A stretch of 64,000 nt of DNA from an uncultured bacterium (GTDB lineage: Bacteria; Acidobacteriota; Aminicenantia; UBA2199), in assembly GCA_965371805.1 (NCBI GenBank), contig CBDUZW010000005.1:28926-92925 (forward strand), given 5' to 3'. The translations under genes and the position numbers were made by a program. Below the pieces are notes generated by a model. That model ran no database searches, had not been told where the DNA came from, and was given only the letters and a program-made list of their open reading frames with translations. This document shows positions 9,228 through 59,693 of the stretch, piece after piece; positions within the stretch are counted from its first letter, which is position 1, and every line of letters begins with the position of its first letter.

Positions 9228-9992
9228 ATGAAGACAATTTTAATTACAAATGATGACGGCTACATGTCTGAAGGAATCATTTTACTAACAGAACAACTTC
9301 GGAAAAAATATAATGTTTTTGTTGTCGCTCCAGACAGAGAGAGAAGTGCCATTAGTATGGGTTTAACCTTGAATACCCCATTAAGAATAACACAGGTAGG
9401 AAAACAGAATTTCATTACAACAGGTACTCCAATTGATTGTATTAATCTTGGATTAAAGATTGCACTTCCAGTAAAACCGGATCTTATAGTTTCAGGTATT
9501 AATCATGGAGAAAATGTTTCTGAGGATATTTTTTATTCAGGCACAGTTGCCGGAGCTTTTGCGGGACATCTCCATGAAATAAACTCAATTGCCATTTCTT
9601 TTGCAATCGGAAAAAAGATAAAAACTGTTTCAACGGAACAGTTAAAAGAATCTGCGGTTATTTCTATAAAAGTAATTGATAAAATTATTGAAACAAGTTT
9701 TAATAATAGGGTTTATAATCTTAATATTCCAGTCCCAAATAATGGAACAGTATTAACAACTTATCCTGAAAAAAAAAAATATGTCCCGGATCTAATTGAA
9801 AAAACAGACCCAAGAGGTAGGAAATACTATTGGCTTGGCACCGGCAACCCCCTATACTCAGAAAATTTTGGAAGTGATTCTCATGCTATCAAAAACGGAT
9901 ACATCTCGCTTTCTACACTCAAATATGATCTGAGCTGTAAAGACACAGAATATGGAAAAGTTTTTGAACAAATATCCCAAATTACGGAGTAA
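9228..9992 (+). CDS. surE: 5'/3'-nucleotidase SurE
   Basis: MKTILITNDDGYMSEGI... (NDDG motif), 254 aa, typical SurE length and N-terminus. Confidence 0.85.
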   Translation: MKTILITNDDGYMSEGIILLTEQLRKKYNVFVVAPDRERSAISMGLTLNTPLRITQVGKQNFITTGTPIDCINLGLKIALPVKPDLIVSGINHGENVSEDIFYSGTVAGAFAGHLHEINSIAISFAIGKKIKTVSTEQLKESAVISIKVIDKIIETSFNNRVYNLNIPVPNNGTVLTTYPEKKKYVPDLIEKTDPRGRKYYWLGTGNPLYSENFGSDSHAIKNGYISLSTLKYDLSCKDTEYGKVFEQISQITE

Positions 9993-25700: not shown

Positions 25701-26022
25701 GAGACAGGCCAAACTGGGTAAAATGATCGGCACACGAACATGGGGTGGACTGGTTGGCGTATTGGGATATCCGGTCTTAATGGATGGCGGAAGAATAACT
25801 GCTCCTAATGTAGGATTCTGGACTGAAAAAGAAGGATTTTCAGTTGAAAATGAAGGAGTTGCTCCTGATATAAAAGTGGAACAGACACCAAAACTTATGC
25901 TTATGGGCAAAGATCCTCAACTTGATAGAGCGATTGAAGAGGTAATGAAAGAATTGAAAAAAAATCCAGTAAAAAAACCAAAACGACCACCATTTCCAAT
26001 AAGAGGAAATAATAAAAAATAA
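22759..26022 (+). CDS. Tricorn-protease-like multidomain peptidase (N-terminal beta-propellers + PDZ + S41 C-terminal peptidase domain)
   Basis: 1087 aa. Signal peptide. TolB-like repeats (NDLWVADLNGKNLRRLTSASGVETNPFFSPNGKYIAFSGNYDGNTDVYLI). The C-terminal half has S41-like architecture. Length and order match tricorn protease. Confidence 0.75.
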   Translation: MLNFKNGIFISMLLMFFLVSNGASQSTLMLTQPAVSKTNITFSYANDLWVADLNGKNLRRLTSASGVETNPFFSPNGKYIAFSGNYDGNTDVYLIPVEGGIPKRLTWHPIGDTVRGFSSDGKKVIFASNRFAATRGRAKLYSVSLKGGYPMPLELPFANKLTYSPDGAYIAYIPYAEVYNQWKNYRGGTYTQIWIFSLKTKKIVKVPQPAGRCNDTDPFWLNGKIYFRSDRNGEFNLFSYNVKSQKLVQLTRYKKFPILNMNANAGNLVFEQAGRIIKYNLKNNSSTPIQIKIASDLKEVRIRYSSNPRFIRSGSISPSGARAVFGYRGEIITVPAKKGDHRNLTNTVSVHERFPSWSPDGKRIAYFSDMGGEYILKIAPQSGKGESKNYKIPGAGFYTSISWSPDNQKLCFTDNARNIFWLDIKSGKILKIDSEPHYAPGTYGSMIGRWSHDSKWITYHLNNTTKMSQVYVYSIKSGTSRLLTDGLSDISEPIFDPSGKYMYFLVSTDAGPIKHWFEMSNSDKRMSSTIYLATLQQKTLSPLAKESDEESVKEKKKKTDDKKKKAGKKAKKKEEFKIDFANLERRIIALPIKKGIYFNLQIGKTGDIYYLQFDPESRSSALHHYSLKKRKDEVLGSGIRDYQLSADNKKVLVRYRRGWSIVPLGKIKPGKGKLSTGKFSVKVNPKAEWNQIFKEAWRINRDYFYDTNMHGADWNAMYKKYEKFLPHLSCRQDLNRVIQWMCSELGVGHHRGGGGEFIDQAKRIQVGLLGADYEIVNNRYKFKKVYGGLNWNPDLRSPLTEPGVNVKAGEFLFKVDGKAIKYPENVFKYFENKTGQIIELSISSDVQGTKIRKVNIVPVNQEFTLRNRDWVEKNLAYVTKKTNGRVAYVYVPNTAGMGHTYFKRYFYPQSNREAIIVDERFNGGGQIADYYIDMLKKDYSCSWAYRYGKDQHSPSSGIFGPKVLLINEMAGSGGDLFPWMWRQAKLGKMIGTRTWGGLVGVLGYPVLMDGGRITAPNVGFWTEKEGFSVENEGVAPDIKVEQTPKLMLMGKDPQLDRAIEEVMKELKKNPVKKPKRPPFPIRGNNKK

Positions 26023-26095: not shown

Positions 26096-27775
26096 CTATT
26101 TATTCTTCATATTTTTCTTTTTAAGATTAGATATCAATTTTATAATAGCTAGAAAAGGCAGTAAAAATATAAAAATAATTCCTCCATAAGAAGTTACGGC
26201 AACATTTCTGTTTAAAATAAGATCCATTCCAAAGTTTGAGAATGGGTTATCATTAATGAGATAAGCCCAGGTTGATGATGGCCGGCTCAATCCTTCCTTT
26301 TTGGGATCAAAATCATCCAGAGACAGTTCCAAATCCTCATAGGTACTTTTTGATTTTTTTGTAATTATTGCAATTAATGTTTTAAATTCATTATGAACCT
26401 GATTTCTATATTGATCCAATGGTTGGACGCCTCCATATCTCATGAGATGTATCCCCTCTTTTATTGCAATTACCCTTTCAAGAAAGTTGCTCCATACTTG
26501 ATCTATATAAAACAAAATAACATATTTTTCTACCTCTCTAATTTTCTCTAATGAATTATTTTTCAGGAGTAAATCATACTTATTGGAACTCAATACTGAC
26601 ACATTAAATATACTAGTATTGCTCTTTAGAATATCTGTCCTTAGTTTCTCAAATATTTCCCTTTGCAACTCTGTGATATTTGAGTAATCCCATAGAGTCT
26701 TTCTGATCTCAAAATTATCGCTCTCTATTATTCTCTGAGCCCTGTTTATCTCTTTTGCAATAAAATGATCTGCTATTGCTTCCTGACTATCCCGGGGCCA
26801 GAATCTTTCTGGGATTATATTATCCAGACGATATCTTTTTATCAAATCATCATCCATACTAATGAAAAACTCGGATACTCCAGGATCCCCCTGCCTTCCG
26901 GCTCTTCCTCTCAGCTGATTATCAATCCGCCTGCTCTCATGTCTGTTTGTCCCGATGATATAAAGCCCACCTGTTTTAGATACAAATTTATATTCCTCTT
27001 TTGATCCAGCCCCCAGATGAATATCAACTCCTCTACCTGCCATATTGGTTGATATTGTTATCTTATAGGGTCTCCCTGCCTCAGCAATGATTTTTGCTTC
27101 CTGTTCATGGTTTTTTGCATTTAAAACACTATGAACGATATCTCTGTCTCTTAACTGCGAACTTAATAATTCCGATTCATAGACGCTTCCAGTCCCGATT
27201 AACACCGGCTGACCTTTTTCATTTATTTCAATTATTTTTTCTAATAAAGCCTTGTCTTTCGCTTCTTTTGAGGAATATATCCTATCCGTTTTATCTATTC
27301 TTCTATTTTTTTTATTAGGCGGAATTATCGTTATCTTAAAATTATAAAAAGAAAAAAACTCACTGGCAGCTTGAACAGCAGTAGCTGTCATACCTGAAAG
27401 ATTTGGATACAGTTTTACAAAATGCTGTATGGTTATTGAGTTAAATATGATTCCTTCTTCATTAATAAAAAGATTTTCTTTCAGTTCTACAGCCTTATGA
27501 ATACCATGAGGCCATCTTCTTTTATCAGCAATTCTTCCAGTAAATTGATCTATAATCTCAATTTTCCCATCCTTTATAATATAGTCCTTATCTTTTTCTA
27601 ATAATACCTTTGCATGCAGGGCTAAATTTACAGCGATAAAGGTTTTTTGGTTCTCAATGGCAAATATATTGGATATACTAAAATGTTTTTCAATCAGAGC
27701 CCAAATGCCGCATAGCTCACAATTCAGACTGGATCTTATACTGGCTAATGAAGTATTCGCAGGTGAACGATTCAA
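26096..27775 (-). CDS. secA: SecA homolog lacking the N-terminal ~300 aa (no NBD1 / Walker A); retains PPXD-NBD2-helical scaffold, with an atypical hydrophobic C-terminal tail
   Basis: HFSISNIFAIENQKTF aligns to SecA ~HFSVDEKSRQVNLTERG. RWPHGIHKAVELKE; NBD2 TNMAGRGVDIHLG...GGLYIIGTNRHESRRIDNQLRGRAGRQGDPGVSEFFISMDDDL; IRA1 LMRYGGVQPLDQYRNQVHNEF. All three frames upstream (27776-27840) contain stops. The C-terminus lacks the zinc finger and ends in a TM-like GGIIFIFLLPFLAIIKLI. Confidence 0.6.
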   Translation of the reverse strand: MNRSPANTSLASIRSSLNCELCGIWALIEKHFSISNIFAIENQKTFIAVNLALHAKVLLEKDKDYIIKDGKIEIIDQFTGRIADKRRWPHGIHKAVELKENLFINEEGIIFNSITIQHFVKLYPNLSGMTATAVQAASEFFSFYNFKITIIPPNKKNRRIDKTDRIYSSKEAKDKALLEKIIEINEKGQPVLIGTGSVYESELLSSQLRDRDIVHSVLNAKNHEQEAKIIAEAGRPYKITISTNMAGRGVDIHLGAGSKEEYKFVSKTGGLYIIGTNRHESRRIDNQLRGRAGRQGDPGVSEFFISMDDDLIKRYRLDNIIPERFWPRDSQEAIADHFIAKEINRAQRIIESDNFEIRKTLWDYSNITELQREIFEKLRTDILKSNTSIFNVSVLSSNKYDLLLKNNSLEKIREVEKYVILFYIDQVWSNFLERVIAIKEGIHLMRYGGVQPLDQYRNQVHNEFKTLIAIITKKSKSTYEDLELSLDDFDPKKEGLSRPSSTWAYLINDNPFSNFGMDLILNRNVAVTSYGGIIFIFLLPFLAIIKLISNLKKKNMKNK

Positions 27776-27799
27776 AACCAGCGGGATCGGCTTTCAATT

Positions 27800-28274
27800 A
27801 AACAGTCAGATAACCAAACAATTATTTTTTCATATATTTTTCAGAAACACAGGAGCAATTTTTTATGATGAAGAAAACCCCTTTGCCGGACGTGCTAATA
27901 GGGCGTCACTTTCTCTTGATTATCAGCCATTTGAAAAAATCAGCAACAGTATAAGTCTTTCTTACTCAAATTTTATCAGAAGCTCAGATAGTGAAATAGA
28001 ATATGATTATACTATTGTGAGAAATTATACAACTTTTCAATTGAATAAATACCTGTTTTTCAGAGGTATTGTTGAATATAATTTTTATAAAAAAATTCTC
28101 CAATTGGATTTTCTGGCATCCTTCACCTATATACCCGGTACCGTAGTGCATATAGGCTATGGATCAATTTTTGAAAAGCAGAAATGGGATGACAATAATT
28201 ATGTTAATAGTGATAGATTCATGGAAAATCATAGAGCATTCTTTTTTAAGGTTTCATACCTGTGGAGACTATAA
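27800..28274 (+). pseudogene. C-terminal fragment of an outer-membrane beta-barrel protein (no N-terminus or signal peptide)
   Basis: Alternating beta-strand pattern YDYTIVRNYTTFQLN / FFRGIVEYNFY / LDFLASFTYIPGTVVHIGYGSIF / AFFFKVSYLWRL. The 5' part of the tracked ORF 27657..28274 is antisense to the secA fragment. Confidence 0.3.
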
Positions 28275-37937: not shown

Positions 37938-38591
37938 ATGATAACAATTTCAGAAGAGATAAAAAAGATTGTTCTGTCCTCTCCGTTCCTGGAAGAGGGA
38001 ATACTGAAAGGGATTATAAACCTGTCTGCATTGGCCAGGGAGATAAAACCTCAAATAGAAAAAACACTTATGAGAAAATTGAGTGACAGTGCTATTTTAA
38101 TGGCATTGAAAAGATTTTCTGATAACCTGGAGGGAGAGACATTTATTGCTATTGAAACAAAAAAAAAATTAGGCGATATTTCTGTAAGATCCAATCTTAT
38201 GGAATTTACTTTTCTAAAGTCAGATACTATTTTTGAAAAGCAGAAACTTCTAATGATGGGAATAGAGAACAAAAGAGATAATTTTTTTACTTTTACACAG
38301 GGAATCTATGAGCTTACAATAATATCCGGAACCGATCTCGAAGAGCAGATTGAAGATGTTTTTAAAGGAGAAACCCTTAAAAAAAAACTCTTAAACTTGT
38401 CAGCCATCATTATAAAACTCCCCCCTGAATCTGTAGATCAGCCGGGGGTTCACTACTCCATACTAAAACAACTAGCATGGAACAAAATAAATGTAGTTGA
38501 AGTAGTATCAACATTTACCGAGTTCATTGTCATTTTAAGCAGAAAGGACATAGACAGAGCATTCTCAATCCTGCTCAATTTCCTGTCATAA
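37938..38591 (+). CDS. Small ACT-domain-like ligand-binding protein (uncertain)
   Basis: 217 aa. C-terminal LNLSAIIIKLPPESVDQPGVHYSILKQLAWNKINVVEVVS resembles an aspartokinase-type ACT fold. No DNA-binding domain recognised. Confidence 0.35.
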   Translation: MITISEEIKKIVLSSPFLEEGILKGIINLSALAREIKPQIEKTLMRKLSDSAILMALKRFSDNLEGETFIAIETKKKLGDISVRSNLMEFTFLKSDTIFEKQKLLMMGIENKRDNFFTFTQGIYELTIISGTDLEEQIEDVFKGETLKKKLLNLSAIIIKLPPESVDQPGVHYSILKQLAWNKINVVEVVSTFTEFIVILSRKDIDRAFSILLNFLS

Positions 38592-38798: not shown

Positions 38799-39149
38799 CA
38801 CATAAATAGTATAAAGAACAACAAACTTTTTTCTGAATATAATGGTGCTTTTATTGAAAATTATGTGGCTACTGAACTAATTAAAACAAGATATGAAGAA
38901 TTGTATTATTGGACAAGTGAACACAAAGCAGAAGTAGATTTTATTATATCTAATAATGACAATGAGATTATTCCAATAGAGGTAAAAAGTGGGTTTAGCA
39001 GGGAAAAGAAGAGTTTAAAAGTTTATATTGAAAATTACAAACCAAAAATATCTATAAGACTATCACCAAGAAATTTTACAAAAGATGGTAGTTTTGCAAA
39101 TATTCCTCTTTATGCAATTCCTTTTCTTACTTGGAAGAATAAATATTGA
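38799..39149 (+). pseudogene. C-terminal remnant of a DUF4143-type AAA ATPase gene
   Basis: In frame from 38799 without a start: ...LFSEYNGAFIENYVATELIKTRYEELYYWTSEHKAEVDFIISNNDNEIIPIEVKSG... is the typical C-terminus of AAA_14+DUF4143 proteins. The N-terminal ~250 aa, including the P-loop, is absent. Confidence 0.5.
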
Positions 39150-40363: not shown

Positions 40364-42940
40364 ATGATAAAACAACAAAACAAAATCTATCCATTTACAA
40401 TTTTATCTATCCTCTTTATCCTTTTCTCAAATCTGCCTGCTCAAAATAATACAATAAATTTCCAACATCTATCTTTGGAAGACGGATTGTCGCATAGCAC
40501 TATAAATTGCATTTTTCAAGATAGCAGGGGATTTTTATGGTTTGGAACAGATGATGGTTTAAACAGATATGACGGTTATAATTTTAAAATATTCTTAAAT
40601 GATCCTGAAAAACCTGGAACAATCTCCAGTAATCGCATTAGAGGAATATGCGAAGATGAGGATGGGAATCTCTGGATTGGGACATTTGGTGGATTAAATA
40701 CATTTAATATTAGAACAGGGCGCTTTGCCTCCTATACATTTCATCCTGATATAGAATCAAGACAAAATATAATATGGTCAATGGCTATAAATGATGGATT
40801 CCTATGGGTCGGGACTGAATCCGGATTGATAAAGTTTAATACTAAATCAAAAAAATATAATAACTATAAATTAAATTCAACTCAGTCCAAATTTCAAAGG
40901 AAAACTTTCATAACCATAGTATACATAGATAACTCAAAAAAAATCTGGATTGGAACTAAACATAACGGTTTATATACATTTAAAGAAACAACAAATTCAA
41001 TTGTTCCTTTTAAATATAAACATTCAAAAAACCCGAGTTTCAGAAGTATTAGAAATCTATTCAAAGACCAATCCGGCATATTATGGATCGGCACAGAGTA
41101 TGGAGGTTTAATCAAATATAACAGTCAAAATCAAGAACCTACTTTTTACAAACATATCCCCGGGATTAAGGGATCTATAAGCAGTAATGACATACAATCG
41201 ATATTTGGAACAAAATCAGGAGATCTGTGGATTGGGACCAATGCAAATGGCTTAAACAAGTATAATTCTGCAACAAACAGTTTCACCCTGTACGAACATG
41301 ATCCCAAAAATGCAAACAGCATTAGTCATAACAGTATTCTTTCAATGTATGAGGACAATTCAGGGGTTTTATGGATTGGAACTTATGCAGGAGGGATAAA
41401 CACACTTAACAAAAGTAAAAAAAGATTCGATGTCTTAAAAAATGAACCTGGGAATCCAATCAGCCTCAGTAACAGTACAGTATTTTCAGTTTATGAAGAG
41501 TCTAATGGAATAATCTGGATAGGCACTATTACAGGTTTAAACAGATATGATAGTAAGAATAATCTTTTTAAAGTATATAGTCACGACAAAAACAACCCTA
41601 AAAGTATTAGTCATAATGTTGCAAGAGCTATTTATAAAGATGATAAAGGAAATTTATGGATAGGAACTGATAATGGACTAAATAAATTTAATAGAGAGGA
41701 TGAGACATTTTCTATCTATAGAAACGCCATTACCATTAAGAACTATTCATCCAATTGGCAGAACATAATCCGTTCAATTATTGCTGATAATTCAGGAAAA
41801 CTTTGGATAGGAACACAAAATGGGATCTGTACATTTGATGAAAAAAAAGAACAATTTACATATTATAGATATGATGAAAATAATCAAAACAGTCTTTCAT
41901 CAAATACAGTCAGAGTATTATTAAATGACAGAGACGGTCTTATATGGATAGGCACTGAGAATGGATTAAATAAATTTAATCCAGAAACAAAAGAATTTTT
42001 CATTTATAAACACAACCCCAAAAACCCGCATAGCATTAGTAGTGATAATATCTATAGTATCTTAGAAGATAAAAAAGGTCTGATTTGGATTGGAACAAAA
42101 AAAGGATTAAATGCTTTAAACAGAAAAACAGGTCTATTTACAAACTATACAGAACATGACGGATTGGGAAATGATATTGTATACTGCATTCTTGAATCTA
42201 ACGACAATAATTTATGGCTCAGTACTGATAAAGGCATAACAAAGGCATATAATAGCTTAAAAAACATTGACTCATCAGTAAAAGATCAAAAATTGAAATT
42301 TAGAAATTTTGATATAAAAGATGGTGTGCAGGGACATGAGTTTAATTCAGGCGCCTCATTCAAAAGTAATAAGGGAACTTTGTACTTTGGAGGAATGAAT
42401 GGATTAAATATATTTGACCCGGAAAAAATAATGACTGATAACAGCTATATTCCGCCTGTAGTCTTAACTGAGTTCAGATTATTTTCTGAAAAAATATCCA
42501 TACACTCAAGGATCGATGGAAAAACCATATTAAGTAAGCCAATAGAATTGACAGAAAAAATAGTACTTCCTTATAATGCAAACTATATCTCCTTTAAATT
42601 CACAGCATTAGATTTCACTTGCACAAAAAACAATAAATTTGCCTATATGATGAAAGGATTAAGCAATGAATGGCACTACCTTGGCACAAAAAACGAACTT
42701 GATTTTCATCTTTCTCCAGGAACATTTATTTTAAACATAAAAGGTTCAAATAGTGACCATGTCTGGAATGAAAATGGAGTATCGATAACAATCATTATAA
42801 ATCCCCCTTTTTGGACTACAATATGGTTTAGAATAGCCGTTTCCATGTTTGTCTTTTTAGTGATATTTTCACTATACAGAGTCAGAATATACAATATTAA
42901 AAAAAAAATATCCAACTCAGCAACCATAATGAACAATTAA
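40364..42940 (+). CDS. Hybrid sensor, part 1: signal-Reg_prop repeats-Y_Y_Y-TM; terminated prematurely after an A10 homopolymer (42899..42908)
   Basis: GLSHSTINCIFQDSRGFLWFGTDDGLNRYDG and 13 or more further propeller repeats. Y_Y_Y segment and TM TIWFRIAVSMFVFLVIF. The stop falls 11 codons after the A10 tract. Confidence 0.7.
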   Translation: MIKQQNKIYPFTILSILFILFSNLPAQNNTINFQHLSLEDGLSHSTINCIFQDSRGFLWFGTDDGLNRYDGYNFKIFLNDPEKPGTISSNRIRGICEDEDGNLWIGTFGGLNTFNIRTGRFASYTFHPDIESRQNIIWSMAINDGFLWVGTESGLIKFNTKSKKYNNYKLNSTQSKFQRKTFITIVYIDNSKKIWIGTKHNGLYTFKETTNSIVPFKYKHSKNPSFRSIRNLFKDQSGILWIGTEYGGLIKYNSQNQEPTFYKHIPGIKGSISSNDIQSIFGTKSGDLWIGTNANGLNKYNSATNSFTLYEHDPKNANSISHNSILSMYEDNSGVLWIGTYAGGINTLNKSKKRFDVLKNEPGNPISLSNSTVFSVYEESNGIIWIGTITGLNRYDSKNNLFKVYSHDKNNPKSISHNVARAIYKDDKGNLWIGTDNGLNKFNREDETFSIYRNAITIKNYSSNWQNIIRSIIADNSGKLWIGTQNGICTFDEKKEQFTYYRYDENNQNSLSSNTVRVLLNDRDGLIWIGTENGLNKFNPETKEFFIYKHNPKNPHSISSDNIYSILEDKKGLIWIGTKKGLNALNRKTGLFTNYTEHDGLGNDIVYCILESNDNNLWLSTDKGITKAYNSLKNIDSSVKDQKLKFRNFDIKDGVQGHEFNSGASFKSNKGTLYFGGMNGLNIFDPEKIMTDNSYIPPVVLTEFRLFSEKISIHSRIDGKTILSKPIELTEKIVLPYNANYISFKFTALDFTCTKNNKFAYMMKGLSNEWHYLGTKNELDFHLSPGTFILNIKGSNSDHVWNENGVSITIIINPPFWTTIWFRIAVSMFVFLVIFSLYRVRIYNIKKKISNSATIMNN

Positions 42941-42999
42941 ATAGACAGATTTTAGAAAAAGAACTTGCAGAAAAAGAGACAAAAAAACTTCAAAATTAT

Positions 43000-44481
43000 A
43001 TGAGCAATATTATTGATTCAATGCCTTCAATTTTGATTGGAATAGATGCTTTTGGTAAGGTGACTCAATGGAATAAAACCACAGAACAAACTACTGGAAT
43101 TAGTGCTTCAGCTGCTCAGGGACAAAATCTTTCCGTTGTATTCCCCAGGATTGAATCTGAAATAAAGAATATTATTGACAGTATTCAATCCCGGGAAACA
43201 ATCCGGAAGTTAAAAAAGACCCATAATAATGAAGACTTGTTATTTGAAAACTTGACGGTCTATCCTTTAACAGCTGACGACATAAAAGGTGCTGTGATAA
43301 GGATTGACGATGTTACTAGAGAAAAAAAACTGGAAGAGCAATTGAGTCAAAGCCAGAAAATGGATGCAATCGGACAACTTGCAGGCGGTATTGCACATGA
43401 TTTCAATAATATGCTTGGAGGAATAATGGGAGCTGCCGAGCTCTTAAAACTCCCCAAAAGAAATATTGATCAGAAAGGGATAGAATTAGTTGATCTTATT
43501 CTTATTGCTTCGAAACAGGCAGCAGATCTAACAGCTAAATTATTAGCACTTGGTCATAAAAGTAAAGTATTTTCAACTGTGGTAGATATACATAAGATCA
43601 TAGATGACACCATTGCAATATTAAATAGAACAATAGACAGAAAGATAAAACTTATTTTAACAAAAGAAGCAGAAAGTCATAACGTAATTGGTAATAGTTC
43701 AAGCTTACAAAATATTCTTCTAAACCTGGGAATAAATGCAGCGCATGCAATGACTGATAGTGGCATAATTCAGATTAAAACAAAAAACAGTAAACTGGAC
43801 AAATCTTATTGTGAGTTCAGTCCATTTGATATTAAACCTGGCGAATATATTGAAATTGAAATAAGGGACTCCGGTTGTGGAATTTCAAGTGAGAATATGA
43901 AGAAAATCTTCGAGCCATTTTTTACCACAAAAGATCAGGGTAAAGGATCCGGACTCGGCTTAGCTGCTGTCTATGGAACAGTAAAATCTCATCAAGGAGC
44001 TGTAACAATAGACAGTTTATTAAATGTAGGTACATCCTTTCATGTATTTCTTCCATGTTCAAAAAAAACTGCTGATCCTGAACACAGTGATGTTGAAATA
44101 CAATATGGGACAGGTCAGATCCTCCTCATTGATGATGAAAAAATCATCAGAAAAACCGGCAAAGGAATGCTTGAAGAGATGGGATATAAGGTTATCACAG
44201 CAAAAAATGGTAAAGAAGGTGTTGATGTATACAGAAATATGTATAAAGAAATTGACATTATAATAATGGACATGATTATGCCTGAGATGAATGGACGTGA
44301 AGCTTTCTTAAAAATGAAAGAGATAAACAAAAACTGCAAGGTGATAATAGCATCCAGTTTTGCAAAAAAAGAGGTGCTTGATGAATTGGATAAAGCTGAT
44401 TTGTCCGGTTTTATAAGCAAACCCTTTAACTATCCTGAAATGGGGAAATTGATATCTGAGGTCTTATCAAAAGAACATTGA
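43000..44481 (+). CDS. Hybrid sensor, part 2: PAS-HisKA-HATPase_c-REC; its frame is open upstream to the A10 tract and is probably continuous with 40364..42940
   Basis: PAS (IGIDAFGKVTQWNKTTEQTTG). H-box AHDFNNMLGGIMG. G-boxes DSGCGIS...GSGLGLA. Receiver ILLIDDEKIIR...IIMDMIMPEMNG. The frame reads ...IQLSNHNEQLNRQILEKELAEKETKKLQNYMSNII back to 42909. Confidence 0.7.
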   Translation: MSNIIDSMPSILIGIDAFGKVTQWNKTTEQTTGISASAAQGQNLSVVFPRIESEIKNIIDSIQSRETIRKLKKTHNNEDLLFENLTVYPLTADDIKGAVIRIDDVTREKKLEEQLSQSQKMDAIGQLAGGIAHDFNNMLGGIMGAAELLKLPKRNIDQKGIELVDLILIASKQAADLTAKLLALGHKSKVFSTVVDIHKIIDDTIAILNRTIDRKIKLILTKEAESHNVIGNSSSLQNILLNLGINAAHAMTDSGIIQIKTKNSKLDKSYCEFSPFDIKPGEYIEIEIRDSGCGISSENMKKIFEPFFTTKDQGKGSGLGLAAVYGTVKSHQGAVTIDSLLNVGTSFHVFLPCSKKTADPEHSDVEIQYGTGQILLIDDEKIIRKTGKGMLEEMGYKVITAKNGKEGVDVYRNMYKEIDIIIMDMIMPEMNGREAFLKMKEINKNCKVIIASSFAKKEVLDELDKADLSGFISKPFNYPEMGKLISEVLSKEH

Positions 44482-46013: not shown

Positions 46014-47540
46014 ATGGGAGTAATATCTATGAAAAAACTTATACCTATAGCTTTTATTATCTGCTCTTTTCTATTTCCTACTACCGGATATGGAAAAACT
46101 AATTCTGTAGTTAAAAAGATCATTGAAATTGGAAAAAACGATAACAGAACAATGAAACATCTTGATGTGCTCTGTCATAGATTTGGTGGTAGACCTATTG
46201 GATCAGCTGCTTATGATAATGCAGCAGAATGGGTCGGTAAAAAGTTCAAGGAATGGGGTATGAAGGTTGAATATGATGAGGCAGGCACACTCCCTGTTGG
46301 TTTTAACAGAGGACATTGGACCGGAAAAATGACATCTCCCAGAACTATGCACTTGCATTTTGCAACCCCCTCCTATACAGCTGGTACAAAAGGCAAGCAG
46401 GTTGCTCCGGCAGTCTTGGAACCTAAGGATGAAAAAGAATTTCAAAGAAAAAAAAAAAAGATCAATGGCGCATGGGTATTGCTGAACTTTCCTGAGATCG
46501 ACAAAACAAAAAAAGTTAAAAAAGTTAATTATTGGGAACGGAGAAAAATAAGAGAGGAAGAGAGAAAAAAAATACAGAAAAGAATAGATAAACTGGAAAA
46601 AGCAGGTGCTTTAGGCGTAATTGAACCAGCAAAGATCCCAATACAGGCAATGTATAATAAAGAAGTTTTTAAATGGAAATCATGGAATGATCTTCCAAAT
46701 ATTTGTCAAATCAAATTAGATGAACATCAATTTGCAGAAATCAAACAAATGATAATAGAAAGACAGAGAGTCGTTCTGGAAATTGACATCCGAAATTATT
46801 TTAAAATGGGTCCGGTAAAATATCATAATGTAATTGGCATTATTCCCGGGACAAAATATCCAAATGAATATGTAATATTAGGGGGCCATCTGGATTCATA
46901 TGATGTTGCAACCGGAGCAGTCGATAATGGTAATGGGACAACAACATCAATGGAAGCAGCAAGGTTAATTATGGCTGCCGGTGGGAAACCTAAACGGACA
47001 ATTCTTATCTGTTTATGGGCAGGAGAAGAGTTTGGACTTCTAGGTTCCCAGCATTGGGTAAAAAAATACAAAGGTAAATTAGCAAAAATTTCAGCAATGT
47101 TCAACCGGGACGGTGGACCAACTGTACCGGAAAGTTTAAGTGTTTCAGAAGCAATGTGGAAAGATATGGAAAAAATTTGTAAGCCTGTAAACAACATAAA
47201 CCCGGACTTTCCTTTTAAACTAACCAAAAGAAAACCACGAACAAGACCAAAAAATATAGGCGGTTCCGACCATGTCCCATTTGCAATGAAAGGAGTTCCA
47301 TCAATGGGTTTTAGAAATGGTGATCCTAAAGGTTATGATTTCCGTTACAGTGAGATCTGGCATACAGAAAATGATTATTATCAGAAAAGCATTGCCGAAT
47401 ACCAAAACCATGCTTCCATAGTTAATGCAGTCGTCATTTATGGTATTGCAAACCTGAAACATCAATTGGATAGAACCGGCTACTATCTTCCTGACGAAAA
47501 ACCAGTTAAAAAGAAAAAAAAGAAAGAAAAAAAGAACTAA
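46014..47540 (+). CDS. M28-family peptidase (aminopeptidase) with signal peptide
   Basis: HNVIGIIPGTKYPNEYVILGGHLDSYDVATGAVDNGNGTTTSMEAARLI...WAGEEFGLLGSQHW. The zinc ligands H, D, E and the EE motif are present. Confidence 0.75.
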   Translation: MGVISMKKLIPIAFIICSFLFPTTGYGKTNSVVKKIIEIGKNDNRTMKHLDVLCHRFGGRPIGSAAYDNAAEWVGKKFKEWGMKVEYDEAGTLPVGFNRGHWTGKMTSPRTMHLHFATPSYTAGTKGKQVAPAVLEPKDEKEFQRKKKKINGAWVLLNFPEIDKTKKVKKVNYWERRKIREEERKKIQKRIDKLEKAGALGVIEPAKIPIQAMYNKEVFKWKSWNDLPNICQIKLDEHQFAEIKQMIIERQRVVLEIDIRNYFKMGPVKYHNVIGIIPGTKYPNEYVILGGHLDSYDVATGAVDNGNGTTTSMEAARLIMAAGGKPKRTILICLWAGEEFGLLGSQHWVKKYKGKLAKISAMFNRDGGPTVPESLSVSEAMWKDMEKICKPVNNINPDFPFKLTKRKPRTRPKNIGGSDHVPFAMKGVPSMGFRNGDPKGYDFRYSEIWHTENDYYQKSIAEYQNHASIVNAVVIYGIANLKHQLDRTGYYLPDEKPVKKKKKKEKKN

Positions 47541-50048: not shown

Positions 50049-51437
50049 TCATTGATCTGTAGACTTATCTTCTATTATATTCAATTGTTCCATTCGATAG
50101 CGTAATATACGCTCACTAATCCCAAGAATTTTTGCAGACTTTACTTTAATACCGCCAGTTAGTCTTAAAGCCTCGCCGATATATTTTCTTTCTATAGATT
50201 CAATTACTTCAGGTAGTTTTCTACCGGAATGGACCAGATCCAGTTCAAATTGATCGTCTTTATTGAGAAATACCCCAATATCTTCATCGTCCAGATAATC
50301 AGAATTAGTAAGAATCACAGCTCTTTCTATCAAATTCTCCAACTCCCTTATATTTCCTGGAAAATGGTAATTAATAAGATTTTTTAAAGTATTTCTTTTT
50401 ATTCCCTTAATTATTTTATTTTCCCTCGTTGAAAATTTTAAAATGAAAAAATCTATCAGACAGGGAATATCTACTTTTCTTTCTCTCAAACTTGGGACAT
50501 CTATTCTGATCACATTTAGTCTATAAAACAGATCTTCCCTGAATTTCTTTTCTCTGACAAGATCTTCCATCTTTTGATTTGTTGCAGCAATTATTCTCAC
50601 ATCAGTTTTTACTGGCGTTGAAGAACCAAGCCTATACACTTCCTTATCTTGAATTGCCCTTAATATTTTCACTTGAGATGATATAGCAAGGTCTCCAATT
50701 TCATCTAAAAACAAAGTGCCTTTATGTGCAGCTTCAAATTTCCCTATTAACCTTCTATCAGCTCCAGTAAAGGATCCTTTTTCAGCTCCGAACAGCTCTG
50801 ATTCTAAAAGGGTTTCTGGAATTGCTGCAATGTTAATTTTAACCATTGGAGCGCTTTTTCTGTCTGATGCATTATGAATTATATCTGCAATTCTATCTTT
50901 TCCAGTCCCGGTTTCTCCACCAATCAATACTGTTGCTTCACTTTTAGCAACCTTCAATGCCATTTTGACTATTTTTTTCATTTTTCTGGAATTACAAATA
51001 AACTCTTTATCAGGTAAAACATCCTTTACCAACTCTTTCAGTCGTTCTACTTCAAGATTTAAGTTTAAAAATTCTATTGTTTTTTTTACTCTTAATAATA
51101 ATTCTTCTTTTTTTACCGGTTTACGTATAAAATCAAATGCACCATTTTGCATTGCCTCTACGGCCAGTTCAAGATTTCCAAAAGCAGTAACCATTATAAC
51201 TTTAGTTATCGGAGAGTTTTCCTGTATCTTTGGTAAGATATCCAATCCGGTCATATCACCCAATTTGTAATCAAGCAATAAAATATCAAAAACTTTTTCA
51301 TTAAATCTTTCTAAAAAATCACTGCCTGATTTAAATGTAGTTACATCAAATCCTTCATTAACAAGAATATCCCTGCTTAGATTTCTATGTAACTCTTCAT
51401 CATCAATAATGCCTATAATAATCAAGTTCTTATCCAT
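50049..51437 (-). CDS. Sigma54-dependent response regulator (NtrC family: REC-AAA+ sigma54 activator-Fis HTH)
   Basis: REC (IIGIIDDEELHRNLSRDILVNEGF...LLDYKLGDMTG). Walker A GETGTGKD. ESELFGAEKGSFTGA (GAFTGA). C-terminal HTH AKILGISERILRYRM. Confidence 0.85.
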   Translation of the reverse strand: MDKNLIIIGIIDDEELHRNLSRDILVNEGFDVTTFKSGSDFLERFNEKVFDILLLDYKLGDMTGLDILPKIQENSPITKVIMVTAFGNLELAVEAMQNGAFDFIRKPVKKEELLLRVKKTIEFLNLNLEVERLKELVKDVLPDKEFICNSRKMKKIVKMALKVAKSEATVLIGGETGTGKDRIADIIHNASDRKSAPMVKINIAAIPETLLESELFGAEKGSFTGADRRLIGKFEAAHKGTLFLDEIGDLAISSQVKILRAIQDKEVYRLGSSTPVKTDVRIIAATNQKMEDLVREKKFREDLFYRLNVIRIDVPSLRERKVDIPCLIDFFILKFSTRENKIIKGIKRNTLKNLINYHFPGNIRELENLIERAVILTNSDYLDDEDIGVFLNKDDQFELDLVHSGRKLPEVIESIERKYIGEALRLTGGIKVKSAKILGISERILRYRMEQLNIIEDKSTDQ

Positions 51438-51786: not shown

Positions 51787-53433
51787 CTATCTGTTAATTG
51801 TGAACCTTTTACTGCATGAATTATCCCGTTCATTAATTTCCTCAATAGTATTGTCAGGATCTACAGTCACAATCATTCTATACCTTTTTCCTTTTTTAAA
51901 TATACATGAAAATGATCTTGTATCAAATAAAATTCCACCTTGTTTTTTAATTGTAAGTTTGATGTTTAGATGATAAGTCTGACCACCTGTTATTAATGGG
52001 ATAATTGAATCGTGTTCCTTTTCACAAAATACATCGCCATCAACAGACTTGATCTCAAGTTTTACTTTAACGTTTCGTAAACTTGCACTTGAATCAACTC
52101 CATAACTACCACTAAACTTATATTTTCTGCCAATTTTGGTAACTCTTACCGAAAAACATGTAATTGTAAGGTTTTTCCAAGAAACAGAAATAGTTTTTGT
52201 ATTATTGCTCTCATCTGATTCGGGTATTCTTAAATTTGAATCTATCATACATGAGATAGTCTTATTGACCCTTCCTTCTAGAAAAAGACTTAATCCAATT
52301 AATGATACATCTTTAATAACACCTTTGCTCAGGTTTAGCCATTTAGTGACTCGTTTTACGGGAGAAACAGCCATAAATTCAATATTTCCTCTAAAGTTTG
52401 AATTATTGCTTCTTACTCTGGCATGAAGCCTTCCATTATCTGCAAAAATTTCTACTATTTCCAGATCTGTGACTGTAGAAGCACCTTGCTGGGGACTAAC
52501 ATCAGTTGTCTTAATCTCAAAGTCTCTGCTTCTACCGGAAATTTCTCCCTGTTCAACTCTAATAAAGTAATTTCCAGATTCAAAATCTGAAGGGATTTGC
52601 CAGTCAAATCCAGATGCGTTATACCTTATACTTTCTATAATAGTAATTCCACCTGATCCATCGGCCTTTCTTAAGTTGACTCTTACATTTCCGGTAATTC
52701 CTACTGCCCGCCATCTTCCTGATATGGTGGCACCCCTGGAACTTCTCAGAACTTGAGAATGTTGGACAGTAATTGACGACGGAAGTGATGCAGCTATACT
52801 AAAAATGGAAGAATCGTCTCCAACAAGATTGTCTATTGTTTTGACTCTGATTGTATAACTCCCATTGGCAACACTATTTGGGACATTCCAGCTAAAACTT
52901 CCATCATTTGTAGTACTATTTGAAATATCTAAAATCTTTGTTGTCCCTGCTGGATTATACAAACGGATCTTTACTGATGCATCTTGAGGTCCAGATTTTG
53001 TCCATTGGATGTTATATGAGCCCCCTTTTGCTACAGTTTCACTTAATACTGGTTTTGTTACTGTAATTGTAGCAGCTGGAGATGGAACATCTGAAATTGT
53101 AAAAACTCCACTATCATCCCAAGTTACATTGTCAAGGGTTTTTACTCTAACAACATAATTGCCATTTGCTACACTATTTGGGACCGGCCAAGAAAAACTT
53201 CCATTATTTGCTGTACTATTTGTAATATCTAAAATCTTTATTGTACCTGCTGTATTATACAAGCGGATCTTTACTGATGCATCTTGAGATCCAGATTTTG
53301 TCCATTGTATAGTATAAGGACTCCCTTTTACTACAGTTTCACCTGATGCAGGTTTTGTAACTGTTATAGTAGCAGCTGACAACATTCCCATAGTTATAAT
53401 TATAACTAACATAAATAATAATAATCTTTTCAT
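51787..53433 (-). CDS. Secreted protein with three tandem ~90-aa Ig-like (Kre9/KNH-like) repeats and a C-terminal CARDB-like domain
   Basis: Likely start MKRLLLFMLVIIITMG with a GGAGGG RBS. The tracked ORF extends to a TTG at 53484. Repeats ATITVTKP.SGETV.KGS.Y.IQWTKSG.QDASVKIRLYN.AGT.KILDI.NST.N.GSFSW.VPNSVANG.Y..RVKT. Confidence 0.45.
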   Translation of the reverse strand: MKRLLLFMLVIIITMGMLSAATITVTKPASGETVVKGSPYTIQWTKSGSQDASVKIRLYNTAGTIKILDITNSTANNGSFSWPVPNSVANGNYVVRVKTLDNVTWDDSGVFTISDVPSPAATITVTKPVLSETVAKGGSYNIQWTKSGPQDASVKIRLYNPAGTTKILDISNSTTNDGSFSWNVPNSVANGSYTIRVKTIDNLVGDDSSIFSIAASLPSSITVQHSQVLRSSRGATISGRWRAVGITGNVRVNLRKADGSGGITIIESIRYNASGFDWQIPSDFESGNYFIRVEQGEISGRSRDFEIKTTDVSPQQGASTVTDLEIVEIFADNGRLHARVRSNNSNFRGNIEFMAVSPVKRVTKWLNLSKGVIKDVSLIGLSLFLEGRVNKTISCMIDSNLRIPESDESNNTKTISVSWKNLTITCFSVRVTKIGRKYKFSGSYGVDSSASLRNVKVKLEIKSVDGDVFCEKEHDSIIPLITGGQTYHLNIKLTIKKQGGILFDTRSFSCIFKKGKRYRMIVTVDPDNTIEEINERDNSCSKRFTINR

Positions 53434-53479
53434 TTTTCCCTCCAAAAATGTATTTTCAAATTTCTCACATAAAACATAC

Positions 53480-53495
53480 AGCAAAAAATATGCCA
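53480..53495 (-). promoter_or_regulatory. Sigma54 (-24/-12) promoter TGGCAT-N5-TTGCT upstream of the secreted repeat-protein gene
   Basis: Reverse complement of 53480-53495 is TGGCATatttTTTGCT, close to the consensus TGGCAC-N5-TTGCA, about 47 nt upstream of the ATG. Upstream inverted repeats (GACAAG-GCTATATATAGC-N6-CTTGTC at 53549-53578; CAAACAA-N6-TTGTTTG at 53579-53598) are candidate enhancer sites. Confidence 0.45.
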
Positions 53496-53708: not shown

Positions 53709-56700
53709 TTATGTAGAATAATTGTCTTTAACAGGAAGAAGGACATAAAAAATGCTTCCTTTGGGAAAATTGTTTAGATAACCGATTGTTCCATCATGTG
53801 CTTCTATAATAAGCCGGGCTACTGCCAGGCCCAGACCGGTACCCTTAATTGAGGAAATCTGGTCTTTTTTTAATTGATAATATTTATCAAAAAGGTATTG
53901 GACACTTGCTTTATCAACTCCTGATCCTTCATCAATCACTGAAAACTCTTGAAAAACAGCATTATCTTTGATGGTCTTATTTAATCTTAGAGTAATCCAA
54001 CCATTTTTTGGAGAATATTTTAAGGCATTTGTCAACAGGTTATTAACTAATTGGGTCATACGCATCTGATCCAGTAAAATAGGCTGCAGATTTTCAAATT
54101 CAGTCTTGATTTGGAGGTTTCTATTTTTTAAAAGGGGTATCATCAAAGATACAGAATCTTCAATAATGCTCTGAAAAGGAATTATCTCTTTAGATAGAAT
54201 CATTTTTCCTGATTCAAATTTAAAAACATTTAAAATATCATCAATTATTTTCAACATTATGTCTGCTGATTTTGTAATAACATTATTTATTTTTTTGATA
54301 TTCTCCTTATCAGGTTGTTCATTTAAAACACTTGAATATCCCACTATATTATTAAGAGGACTTCCAAGATCATGTACGAGCATAGCAACAAAATCTTTCT
54401 TTAACTTGAGCTCACTTTTTAAATGATCTCTTTTCAATCTTGATTTTATTACCCTTATTCTTATTCTATAAAAAGTAAATATAATAAATAAAAATGCTAA
54501 GACTAATATTCCCTTAAACCATATTCTTTGCCAGAAAGGAGGTGTAATAGTGATAAGAAGTTTCGCCCCTTTCTTATTCCAGATGCCATCATTATTGGTC
54601 CCCAAAACCTTAAAAACATATTCTCCCGGATCCAGATTTGTATAAGAGACAAATCTACGAGCACCTGAATTTATCCACTCAGAGTCAAGACCCTCTAATT
54701 GATAGGAATATTTGCTTTTCCCGGAAATACGGTAATCGAGAGCAGCGAATTTAAAAGAAAAAAAATTTTCTTTATATGATAATACAATTTTATTTGTATA
54801 ATTTATTGGGTTTTTTAAGAATAAACTGGATTCATGATCAACAGGTTTATTAAATAATTGAAATTCAGTAATCAAGATTTCAGGTTTATATTGGTTATCT
54901 ACAATTTCTTCAGGTTTAAATATATTAAACCCATTGATGCCGCCAAATAACATTTCATTGTTTTTCCTTTTAAAACAAGCTCCCTGATTAAATTCATTAC
55001 TCTGCAAACCATCCCCTTGATCATAATTTTTAAATGTTTCAGATTTTGGATCAAATTTTGACAAGCCCAGATTGGTACTGAACCATAGAAGGCCCTTTTC
55101 ATCCTCCAATAATCCATAAATTACTTCATTGCTCATTCCATTTTTACTGTTAAATCTAACAAATTTTTTTAATTCTCTATCAAATTTGTTTAATCCCCCA
55201 TAAGTTCCAATCCATAAAGAGCCTGATTTATCTTCATAAATAGTAGTGATAATATTATTACTTATACTATTTTTGTCACCTTGAATATTTTTAAAATGAG
55301 TGAATTTATTTTTTTGAACATCAAACTTATTTAATCCTCCTCCGGATGTCCCAACCCAGAAATTGTTTAGTTTATCATTGTATATGGATAATACATAATT
55401 ATGACTTAAACTTGTCGGATCTCCAGGAATGTTTTTATAATGTGTGAACTTTTTTAAGATTGGATCAAATTTGTTTAAACCTCCAAGTTCTGTTCCAATC
55501 CAGATAATGCCTTCTTTATCTTCATATAATTTCCAAATTAAATTATCACTTAAACTATCCGGATCATTACTATTGGATAGAAAATGTACAAATTGGTTCG
55601 TTTCTTTGTTTAACATATTTAATCCACCACCATAAGTACCAACCCATAAAACGCCTTTTCTATCTTCTAATATTGATACCACAGCATTATTGTTTAAACT
55701 ATATGGATCTTTTGGATCATGAAGATATTGCTTATATTTATTTTTATATCTATCAAATCGATTTAAACCGCCCAGATAAGTGCCTATCCATATTATTTTT
55801 GAACGATCTTCATAAAGAGCCCATATATAATTATCACTAAGTTCATTTTCACCATCTGATTCATTGCAAAAATGTAAAAATTTCTTCCTATTTAAATCTA
55901 ATCTATTTACCCCTCCACCAAATGTCCCTATCCAAAGGATACCAGAATCATCCTCAACAATCGATAAGATTGAATTATGACTAATACTTCTTGAGTTTTT
56001 TATCGAATTTTTGAAATGTGTAAATGTATTAGTTTTGCGATTATATCTGTTCAATCCATCTCTATATGTACCAACCCATAGATCTCCATCTGTATCTTCA
56101 TAGATTGTTGAAACACTATTATTGCTTAAACTTTTACTATCAATTGGATTATTTATAAATTTAATAAACTGATCTGTTTTGGAATTATATAGATTGACAC
56201 CTCCCAATGCAGTACCAATCCAAAGTGATTTATGACTATCCATAAATACAGTTTGGATATAATTATCAGATAAGCTTTCAAGATTATCTTTTTGACTCTT
56301 ATAAACATCAAATATATTGTTTTTCTGATTATATCTATTTAATCCACCACCATAAGTTCCAACCCAAAGGTTTCCAAATTTATCTTCACAAATTGAAGTA
56401 ACATAGTTATGACTCAAACTTCTGGAATTGAGAGGATCATTTTTATTATGTGAAAAGTCACCTCTTATTTTTGAAAATTTATTCACCCCACCATTCCGGG
56501 TTCCAATCCACAATGTATTTGATGAGTCTCCATATAGACAGGTAATAAAATTACCACTTATGCTCCTTGGATTACCAGAAATATTTTTATAATGTTCAAA
56601 TCTCTCATTTTGAGGGTCATATCTATTAAGTCCCCCACCATGTGTTCCTATCCATATTATCCCATCTTTATCTTCAAAAATTGCCAGGATATAATTATTA

Positions 56701-57065
56701 CTAATGCTATTAATATCATTTAAATTATTTTTAAATATTTTAAATGAGTATCCATCATATCTGTTCAAACCGTCCTCAGTTCCAAACCACATAAATCCCT
56801 GTTTATCCTGTAATACACAAAATACAGAATTTTGTGAAAGACCATTATCAATTGACAGACTATCAAATTTTATATTATTTTCCCCTTGAACAGTACAGAT
56901 AAAACCTACAAAAAATATTACAATCAAAAAAAAAAGTACTCTATCTTTTTTTCTAAGCATACAAATATAATACCTTAAAAAAAACAAATTGTTAACACTT
57001 AAATTAAAAATATTGCAAAATCCCTCTGAATTCCACCTACTACATAAATGTAAACAAAGTGACAA
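53709..57065 (-). CDS. Reg_prop/Y_Y_Y transmembrane sensor histidine kinase (HisKA + HATPase_c, no receiver)
   Basis: Likely start MLRKKDRVLFFLIVIFFVGF. About 14 propeller repeats. Y_Y_Y. TM ILVLAFLFIIFTFY. H-box LVHDLGSPLNNI. G-box SVIDEGSGVD...GTGLGLAV. Confidence 0.75.
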   Translation of the reverse strand: MSLCLHLCSRWNSEGFCNIFNLSVNNLFFLRYYICMLRKKDRVLFFLIVIFFVGFICTVQGENNIKFDSLSIDNGLSQNSVFCVLQDKQGFMWFGTEDGLNRYDGYSFKIFKNNLNDINSISNNYILAIFEDKDGIIWIGTHGGGLNRYDPQNERFEHYKNISGNPRSISGNFITCLYGDSSNTLWIGTRNGGVNKFSKIRGDFSHNKNDPLNSRSLSHNYVTSICEDKFGNLWVGTYGGGLNRYNQKNNIFDVYKSQKDNLESLSDNYIQTVFMDSHKSLWIGTALGGVNLYNSKTDQFIKFINNPIDSKSLSNNSVSTIYEDTDGDLWVGTYRDGLNRYNRKTNTFTHFKNSIKNSRSISHNSILSIVEDDSGILWIGTFGGGVNRLDLNRKKFLHFCNESDGENELSDNYIWALYEDRSKIIWIGTYLGGLNRFDRYKNKYKQYLHDPKDPYSLNNNAVVSILEDRKGVLWVGTYGGGLNMLNKETNQFVHFLSNSNDPDSLSDNLIWKLYEDKEGIIWIGTELGGLNKFDPILKKFTHYKNIPGDPTSLSHNYVLSIYNDKLNNFWVGTSGGGLNKFDVQKNKFTHFKNIQGDKNSISNNIITTIYEDKSGSLWIGTYGGLNKFDRELKKFVRFNSKNGMSNEVIYGLLEDEKGLLWFSTNLGLSKFDPKSETFKNYDQGDGLQSNEFNQGACFKRKNNEMLFGGINGFNIFKPEEIVDNQYKPEILITEFQLFNKPVDHESSLFLKNPINYTNKIVLSYKENFFSFKFAALDYRISGKSKYSYQLEGLDSEWINSGARRFVSYTNLDPGEYVFKVLGTNNDGIWNKKGAKLLITITPPFWQRIWFKGILVLAFLFIIFTFYRIRIRVIKSRLKRDHLKSELKLKKDFVAMLVHDLGSPLNNIVGYSSVLNEQPDKENIKKINNVITKSADIMLKIIDDILNVFKFESGKMILSKEIIPFQSIIEDSVSLMIPLLKNRNLQIKTEFENLQPILLDQMRMTQLVNNLLTNALKYSPKNGWITLRLNKTIKDNAVFQEFSVIDEGSGVDKASVQYLFDKYYQLKKDQISSIKGTGLGLAVARLIIEAHDGTIGYLNNFPKGSIFYVLLPVKDNYST

Positions 57066-59510: not shown

Positions 59511-59693
59511 ATTAATTTTTCTTTTAAAGTAACCAACCTCTTTTCTGATTTTTTCTTTTCATTCTTCCAAAAAAGCAAAAAGAGAAAGGAAATAAAATAA
59601 AGAAGAATAAGAAAAAACCTTTTTCTTTTCATTATTTTATTATAACAAAAAAAAAAAAAAGTACAATTATAATATATACCTAAATTTTTAATC

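Follow-up and report, generated by a model that had tools for sequence, protein, structure and literature searches.

Programmed transcriptional slippage is known from tssM1, Thermus dnaX, mxiE and insertion sequence (IS) elements, and the Escherichia coli dnaX gene uses a −1 programmed ribosomal frameshift at A_AAA_AAG. In many bacteria both slippage and selection against it appear at a length of about nine A or T, and the name 'pseudo pseudogenes' has been given to genes disrupted at A/T runs (A9 tracts; Baranov et al. 2005, PMC1088944). In Citrobacter rodentium tssM1, transcriptional slippage on an A11 tract puts about 20% of the products back in frame (PMC4256274), −1 frameshifting at C_AAA_AAA was found with pDEST17 (PMC1851650), and phase variation of two-component genes occurs by a C6/C7 homopolymer in Bordetella pertussis bvgS (PMC1891110) and by A/T tracts in Campylobacter jejuni flgS/flgR (PMC3930126). 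Here we describe a locus of this class in a 64-kb stretch of contig CBDUZW010000005.1, from an Aminicenantes-like genome (the whole stretch is called the window hereafter). Sequence comparison identifies positions 40364-44481 as a single gene for a hybrid sensor kinase, frameshifted by 1 nt at an A10 homopolymer, and not as two genes. The most likely explanation, to which we give a probability of roughly 0.55, is a recent genuine A11 to A10 slipped-strand indel in this gene, possibly leaky by RNA polymerase slippage. The lesion is of the well-known homopolymer-frameshift class and is a new instance of it, not a new kind of system.

What the locus shares with the pseudo pseudogenes is an open reading frame (ORF) broken at a run of at least nine A, for which one extra A at the mRNA level would restore a product homologous to single-ORF proteins of other organisms; unlike them, the window locus is known from assembled DNA alone (PMC1088944). 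If rescue occurs, tssM1 would be the closest mechanistic analogue. It too is a gene for a large inner-membrane protein with a premature stop soon after a poly-A tract, its full-length form needs additional A residues in the transcript (~20%), and its truncated form ends past the membrane-proximal part, as here (PMC4256274). The differences are that both tssM1 isoforms were shown to be required and that a second species also uses a tract; moreover, tssM1 is a component of the type VI secretion system, whereas the window gene encodes a two-component sensor.

As the DNA reads, the locus holds two ORFs. Their features are given below, with conservation judged in an alignment of 25 sequences (alignment A1).

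40364..42940, + strand: ORF1, 858 aa; N-terminal hydrophobic segment, Reg_prop propeller, Y_Y_Y domain, transmembrane (TM) helix, KKK and an out-of-frame tail
42623..42799, + strand: Y_Y_Y domain, aa 754-812 (Pfam PF07495, E 1.3e-08)
42821..42877, + strand: predicted TM helix, ~aa 820-838, IWFRIAVSMFVFLVIFSLY, read from sequence; position conserved in alignment A1
42899..42908, + strand: A10 homopolymer, the frameshift site; lysine codons 846-848 and the first base of the next codon
42908..42940, + strand: out-of-frame tail of ORF1, ISNSATIMNN and TAA
42907..42999, + strand: linker (signalling helix) in the ORF2 frame, NIQLSNHNEQLNRQILEKELAEKETKKLQNY, corresponding by homology to the linker between TM and PAS in full-length homologues
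43000..44481, + strand: ORF2, 493 aa from the first ATG; PAS-HisKA-HATPase_c-REC
~43000-43311, + strand: PAS (Pfam)
43372-43554, + strand: HisKA (Pfam)
43693-44058, + strand: HATPase_c (Pfam)
44119-44448, + strand: REC (Response_reg; Pfam)

Read directly, positions 42899-42908 are a run of exactly ten A with a T on each side (...TAC AAT ATT AAA AAA AAA A, continuing TA TCC...). The frame breaks at 42908 and ORF1 stops at 42938-42940, the 11th codon past the KKK lysines; sensor and transmitter lie in one polypeptide only after one A is added, which gives a fused product of 1372 aa with the linker ...IKKKNIQLSNHNEQLNRQILEKELAEKETKKLQNYMSNII. The intact form would accordingly carry A11 (ATT AAA AAA AAA AAT), encoding I-K-K-K-N. 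The upstream limit of the open frame of ORF2 is a TAA at 42898-42900 that overlaps the first two A of the run, and the linker at 42907..42999 contains no start codon. Since Met882 is the first possible start past the tract, the tryptic peptide NIQLSNHNEQLNR is obtainable only from a fused or shifted product. The stop counts of both frames flip at the tract, from 115 stops in 845 codons before the run to 0 in 526 codons after it for the ORF2 frame and from 0 to 51 for the ORF1 frame (the off-frame stop frequency in the genes of this window is 0.096 per codon), and the frame switch is therefore not chance. An earlier note on this DNA had given these coordinates, the position of the A10 run, the stop of ORF1 11 codons on and an ORF2 frame open back to the run, and all of them hold; its quoted linker is likewise correct, whereas the fusion is 1372 aa long and not ~1375 aa as it had estimated.

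The evidence that the two halves are one gene comes from homology across the junction. The fused sequence was searched against a collection of 5.8 billion proteins, and the statements made here on homologues cover the top 120 matches. ORF1 itself (recorded as P0001, 858 aa) was matched at 100% and all other matches were at ≤45% identity in the search's own alignment. These homologues are all at least 1049 aa long, and in each of them an output module follows the propeller, Y_Y_Y and TM helix; apart from the window's own ORF1, no stand-alone propeller-Y_Y_Y-TM protein was found among them. Many cover 98-100% of the fusion and come close to it in length (P0007, 1401 aa; P0064, 1380 aa; P0095, 1373 aa; P0049, 1377 aa). 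The junction region aligns to P0004, the closest homologue of the fusion, as a single high-scoring segment pair (HSP) that is ungapped across the break (46% identity, E 2e-89, BLASTP). The break lies inside a conserved juxtamembrane motif, I-K-K-x-N-I-x-L, present as I-K-K-[KER]-N-[IF]-x-L in alignment A1, and the added A restores it: the fused sequence reads YRVRIYNIKKK and, past the break, NIQLSNHNEQLNRQILEKELAEKE, where P0004 has YRIRTHNIKKENIQLERHNTQLNEQMLERERAERE and P0017 has ...YIKRKNFELEIHNKELNQQIRERKIAEHE. Residues 818 (PPFW motif) and 885 (start of PAS) are 67 residues apart in the fusion, and the same spacing is found in 13 of the 23 full-length homologues over which it was counted. 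The ungapped HSP and the matching 67-residue spacing together fully support the earlier proposal of a single hybrid sensor kinase split at A10 and restorable by A11. As causes the earlier note had named, with no choice among them, a sequencing error, a recent pseudogenisation, and phase variation or a programmed frameshift; the evidence given below narrows these down. A paralogue in the same window (53709-57065, − strand, 1118 aa) carries Reg_prop, Y_Y_Y, HisKA and HATPase in a single ORF.

A different reading takes the ORFs as two genes in their own right, whose products, a membrane sensor standing alone and a soluble hybrid kinase with PAS, would act together. The ATG of ORF2 does stand right at the PAS start and would give a complete soluble PAS-HisKA-HATPase-REC protein, and public records annotate the halves as separate proteins (P0001 for ORF1 and P0121 for ORF2, one record each, both in NCBI, Logan and ENA). 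Yet the 33 codons 5′ of ATG 43000 are open, which has a probability of ~0.04 by chance, and share homology with the linker found in single-chain homologues; the ten-residue tail of ORF1 aligns in no part with any homologue in alignment A1; and the lack of stand-alone homologues noted above points the same way. ATG 43000 also has no Shine-Dalgarno (SD) sequence, although neither has the start of ORF1, and ~60% of the starts in the window have one of the GGAG type. Since ORF1's start and ~40% of the called starts do without it, the missing SD before ORF2 is weak evidence on independent translation. The linker homology across the junction leads us to reject the two-gene reading, which is largely refuted and to which we attach very little probability.

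Pfam confirms the domain calls made before for both halves, Reg_prop and Y_Y_Y in ORF1 and PAS, HisKA, HATPase and REC in ORF2. Reg_prop (PF07494) matches nine stretches of ORF1 (E 3.5e-66), and a conserved PPFW motif precedes the predicted hydrophobic TM helix. The arrangement resembles the hybrid two-component systems (HTCS) of Bacteroides in its periplasmic Reg_prop and Y_Y_Y, single TM helix and cytoplasmic HisKA-HATPase-REC, and departs from them in having a PAS domain and no C-terminal AraC-type helix-turn-helix (HTH). The latter, placed after the receiver, is what defines an HTCS. There is no Pfam match to HTH_AraC or HTH_18, and the fused protein ends 10 residues past the REC match; membership of the HTCS was rejected on this ground. 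By its domain content the protein is an ordinary Reg_prop/Y_Y_Y hybrid kinase, like many homologues in Aminicenantes, Spirochaetota and Ignavibacteria.

The preferred reading, a genuine and recent loss of one A, further asks that the A10 be real in the DNA, which we hold to be quite probable. In the 64-kb window this locus is the only place where two long same-strand open frames abut at a homopolymer, and the other 55 A/T runs of at least 8 within ORFs of at least 100 aa are all in frame, so the assembly is not generally unreliable at homopolymers. The longest of these in-frame tracts lie mid-gene:

3716-3725: A10 within a gene, in frame
38159-38168: A10 within a gene, in frame
9769-9779: A11 in surE, in frame
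46448-46459: A12 in an M28 peptidase gene, in frame

These very long tracts (A10, A10, A11 and A12) in intact genes are potential slippage sites themselves, and an A14 also occurs between genes at 59647-59660.

The contrary reading, that the organism has A11 and an intact gene and that one A was lost in base-calling, by PCR stutter or in consensus building, is the main rival and the less likely of the two, although it explains much. A 1-nt change in a homopolymer of 10-11 nt is a classic error class, the gene is otherwise without lesions, with catalytic residues intact and the junction ungapped, and the source is a 126-kb contig of the uncultured type, so that the consensus was drawn from a mixed population. 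Against an error stand the 55 other coding runs and the absence of any other homopolymer-linked break in 64 kb, as well as the records themselves: the same two truncated proteins are recorded from Logan re-assemblies, unlike the M3 peptidase encoded next to them on the same contig, which is recorded in NCBI and ENA only. As we read them, the source tags suggest that A10 was reached a second time, and independently, when Logan re-assembled the raw run. The accuracy at homopolymers and the Logan record make a real recent indel somewhat more likely than an artefact. Real gene decay does occur in this genome, as the window holds two other gene relics, a DUF4143 C-terminal fragment and a 5′-truncated secA-like ORF. 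In the kinase gene no other decay is seen in either half. H1012, N1121, N1125, D1169, G1171, G1173, G1197 and G1199 all fall in invariant columns of alignment A1, and ORF2 keeps the phospho-acceptor His and the N, G1 and G2 boxes; the retention of His1012 and of these box residues fits a recent event.

Why an A tract should sit at this point is accounted for by composition. The window has 33.4% GC and ten A/T runs of at least 10, among which an A10 alone is unremarkable; lysine makes up 9.4% of its codons and AAA 79% of the lysine codons. Lysine clusters just after a TM helix fit the positive-inside pattern. Because an AT-rich genome favours AAA for lysine, a KKKN cluster in that place is encoded as A11, and it is because the lysines sit there, next to the TM helix, that the gene looks neatly split between domains. 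The run is interrupted in two homologues that share the K-K-x motif: P0004 has AAG AAA GAA AAT and P0007 has AAG AAA AAA AGC. When synonymous codons were shuffled, sense-strand coding A runs of at least 10 came out mildly depleted in the window (5 observed against 9.2 ± 2.0 expected; ~3% of the shuffles were as low), and for runs of at least 9 the difference was not significant (15 observed against 18.2 expected). The tract is thus a by-product of composition, and long A runs are if anything selected against rather than an enriched contingency class.

Whether the tract is nevertheless kept by selection, as a phase-variable switch or as a programmed transcriptional slippage site that yields a truncated sensor and a full kinase, has to be weighed against this composition. 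Several features agree with such a role. At 10 nt the tract exceeds the ~9 nt needed for efficient slippage in many bacteria (PMC1088944), and precedents exist in sensor kinases and in a membrane protein (PMC1891110, PMC3930126, PMC4256274). As in programmed slippage, an A run of at least 9 lies at the junction of two frames whose fusion is homologous to single-ORF proteins, and as in contingency loci, a ±1 change in the length of a coding homopolymer switches the frame, with A11 or A8 as the ON form; the frame needed is entered if one A is added or if A_AAA_AAA is read with a −1 slip. The break leaves a truncated product with a clean end past the TM helix. No terminator-like site was found between the two halves, which for that reason are presumably co-transcribed. 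bvgS and flgS/flgR are alike in being two-component genes cut short when a coding homopolymer gains or loses one base, a change that is reversible in principle, but they belong to pathogens that live with a host and for which ON/OFF switching and phenotypes have been demonstrated, whereas the window locus is from an environmental Aminicenantes-like genome and its tract looks composition-derived.

The remaining evidence on selection goes the other way. Homologues with the K-K-x motif break the tract by AAG or GAA, long A runs are depleted in the genes of the window where codon bias explains this one, and the clean domain boundary is explained by the lysines beside the TM helix. The host is a free-living bacterium with many paralogous sensors, three of them in the window, and the loss of one is likely near neutral. 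No upkeep of the tract beyond composition, nor its conservation, was seen, a weak test given that the closest homologue has only 46% identity. Slipped-strand phase variation, one of the options in the earlier note, is therefore unsupported as a dedicated contingency locus, homologues being without the tract and long runs being depleted in genes, and selected phase variation or programmed transcriptional slippage is in our view improbable. More doubtful still is the specific form in which a maintained site would make two products at a tunable ratio, an output-less membrane sensor (a possible decoy or partner) and the full kinase; if it were true, the locus would be analogous to tssM1, in a two-component sensor of a free-living anaerobe.

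Programmed ribosomal frameshifting of the dnaX type, which had also been considered for this locus, fares no better. The likeness to dnaX and pDEST17 is an in-phase slippery heptamer of lysine codons: A_AAA_AAA at 42901-42907 has the right phase for a −1 shift, after which AAT ATC CAA... continues in the ORF2 frame and yields the fused product. Unlike dnaX, the locus has neither an SD-like element ~10 nt upstream (cagaatatacaatatt has no GGAG) nor the stable stem-loop or pseudoknot expected 5-9 nt downstream. The 90 nt downstream have a minimum free energy of −0.57 kcal/mol (z +1.47), a value equalled or bettered by 193 of 200 shuffles; the 181-nt context around the tract is likewise less structured than its shuffles. 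With no stimulator found the option is unsupported and was rejected, and because these elements are missing any ribosomal share would be an unstimulated background.

The history that we favour, a one-base loss in a formerly intact gene, would run as follows. In its intact form the gene encodes a transmembrane hybrid kinase of ~1372 aa, with periplasmic Reg_prop and Y_Y_Y, a TM helix, a helical linker, PAS, HisKA, HATPase and REC. Its juxtamembrane lysines and the AAA bias place a slippage hot spot exactly at the boundary of the sensor and transmitter modules, and slipped-strand replication would very recently have contracted A11 to A10; the A10 allele is perhaps fixed and perhaps only the majority allele in the population. 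Taken literally, the DNA would now give a membrane-anchored sensor without output, and the downstream kinase would probably be poorly translated, having no SD of its own. On a run of ten A, transcriptional slippage may reasonably be expected. By analogy with the systems above, RNA polymerase slippage that adds one A could produce the full-length sensor from a minority of transcripts, and a low rate of −1 ribosomal slippage on A_AAA_AAA could have the same effect. One extra A, the commonest slippage product, is the one that restores the frame here. The locus would then be a leaky 'pseudo-pseudogene', revertible by a further replication slip.

Several observations weigh against this history. The length of the A10 run is known from assembled sequence alone, one error among the ~7 coding runs of at least 10 is statistically compatible with the data, and the intact 526-codon downstream frame is expected equally from an artefact or from a programmed shift under selection. 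The rescue by slippage rests on analogy, and RNA polymerases differ in their readiness to slip. As to recency and the non-conservation of the split, no orthologue above 46% identity was found in the searched collections. Relatives found via the M3 peptidase (72-79% identity) had no orthologous sensor beside the peptidase, so that the locus is not syntenic there. Further searches gave the same picture. A DNA pattern with exact flanks and a variable tract length returned 0 matches in the JGI metagenomes, a protein scan of metagenomes with the junction region gave nothing closer than relatives of 24-29% identity, and a scan of genome contigs with the fused protein gave only distant kinases at ≤46% identity over the C-terminal half, dominated by generic kinase motifs (IAHDFNNM, MDMIMPEM). 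One contig locus (L001), whose match began at residue 844, was considered as a similar split and rejected, being an intact 895-aa kinase with a different N-terminus.

The neighbouring M3 peptidase has homologues of 62-68% identity in Candidatus Aminicenantes and metagenomic relatives of up to 80%. The window holds three Reg_prop/Y_Y_Y sensors, at 2040-4778 (− strand), at this locus and at 53709-57065 (− strand), and the family is expanded in this genome. In the first of them Reg_prop/Y_Y_Y is fused directly to a LuxR/GerE HTH, an architecture of the one-component type. The HisKA-HATPase kinase at 53709-57065 lies ~2.3 kb from a sigma-54 response regulator (50049-51437, − strand), and a 565-aa ORF with immunoglobulin-like domains (51787-53484) stands between the two. 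A chemoreceptor and a SpoIIE phosphatase are also present in the window along with this regulator; the genome is a signalling-rich, free-living one in which the loss of one paralogous sensor probably costs little.

The chemoreceptor (15581-18331, + strand, 916 aa) combines Pro_CA (aa 78-232, E 5.9e-34) with 4HB_MCP, HAMP and MCPsignal. By its domain matches it appears to carry a carbonic-anhydrase-like N-terminal module, which is unusual and possibly serves in CO2/bicarbonate sensing. A tricorn-protease-like protein of 1087 aa is encoded at 22759-26022 (+ strand), with PD40 repeats, Tricorn_C1, PDZ_Tricorn and Peptidase_S41. The secA-like ORF (26096-27775, − strand, 559 aa) is without the N-terminal motor domain and starts only at position 40 of its preprotein cross-linking domain, and on the same strand no SecA-like ORF precedes it. 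The 5′ ends of this ORF and of a divergent 205-aa ORF (27657-28274, + strand) overlap. The divergent ORF has no Pfam match and is a suspected outer-membrane-protein fragment as judged by eye; the site at ~27.7 kb could be a scar of deletion or rearrangement or a chimeric assembly join. Just upstream of the kinase locus, a 94-aa ORF (38865-39149, + strand) covers no more of the 160-position DUF4143 profile than positions 115-160 and is probably the relic of an AAA-ATPase/DUF4143 gene.

For annotation, the 858-aa and 493-aa records belong together as a single frameshifted gene for a hybrid sensor kinase and do not stand for two proteins. Should the A10 be real, the locus would offer a natural test of rescue by RNA polymerase slippage in an uncultured lineage, an incremental question. 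For AT-rich genomes more generally, a lysine cluster after a TM helix means a long A run, so that frameshifts there mimic neat splits between domains.

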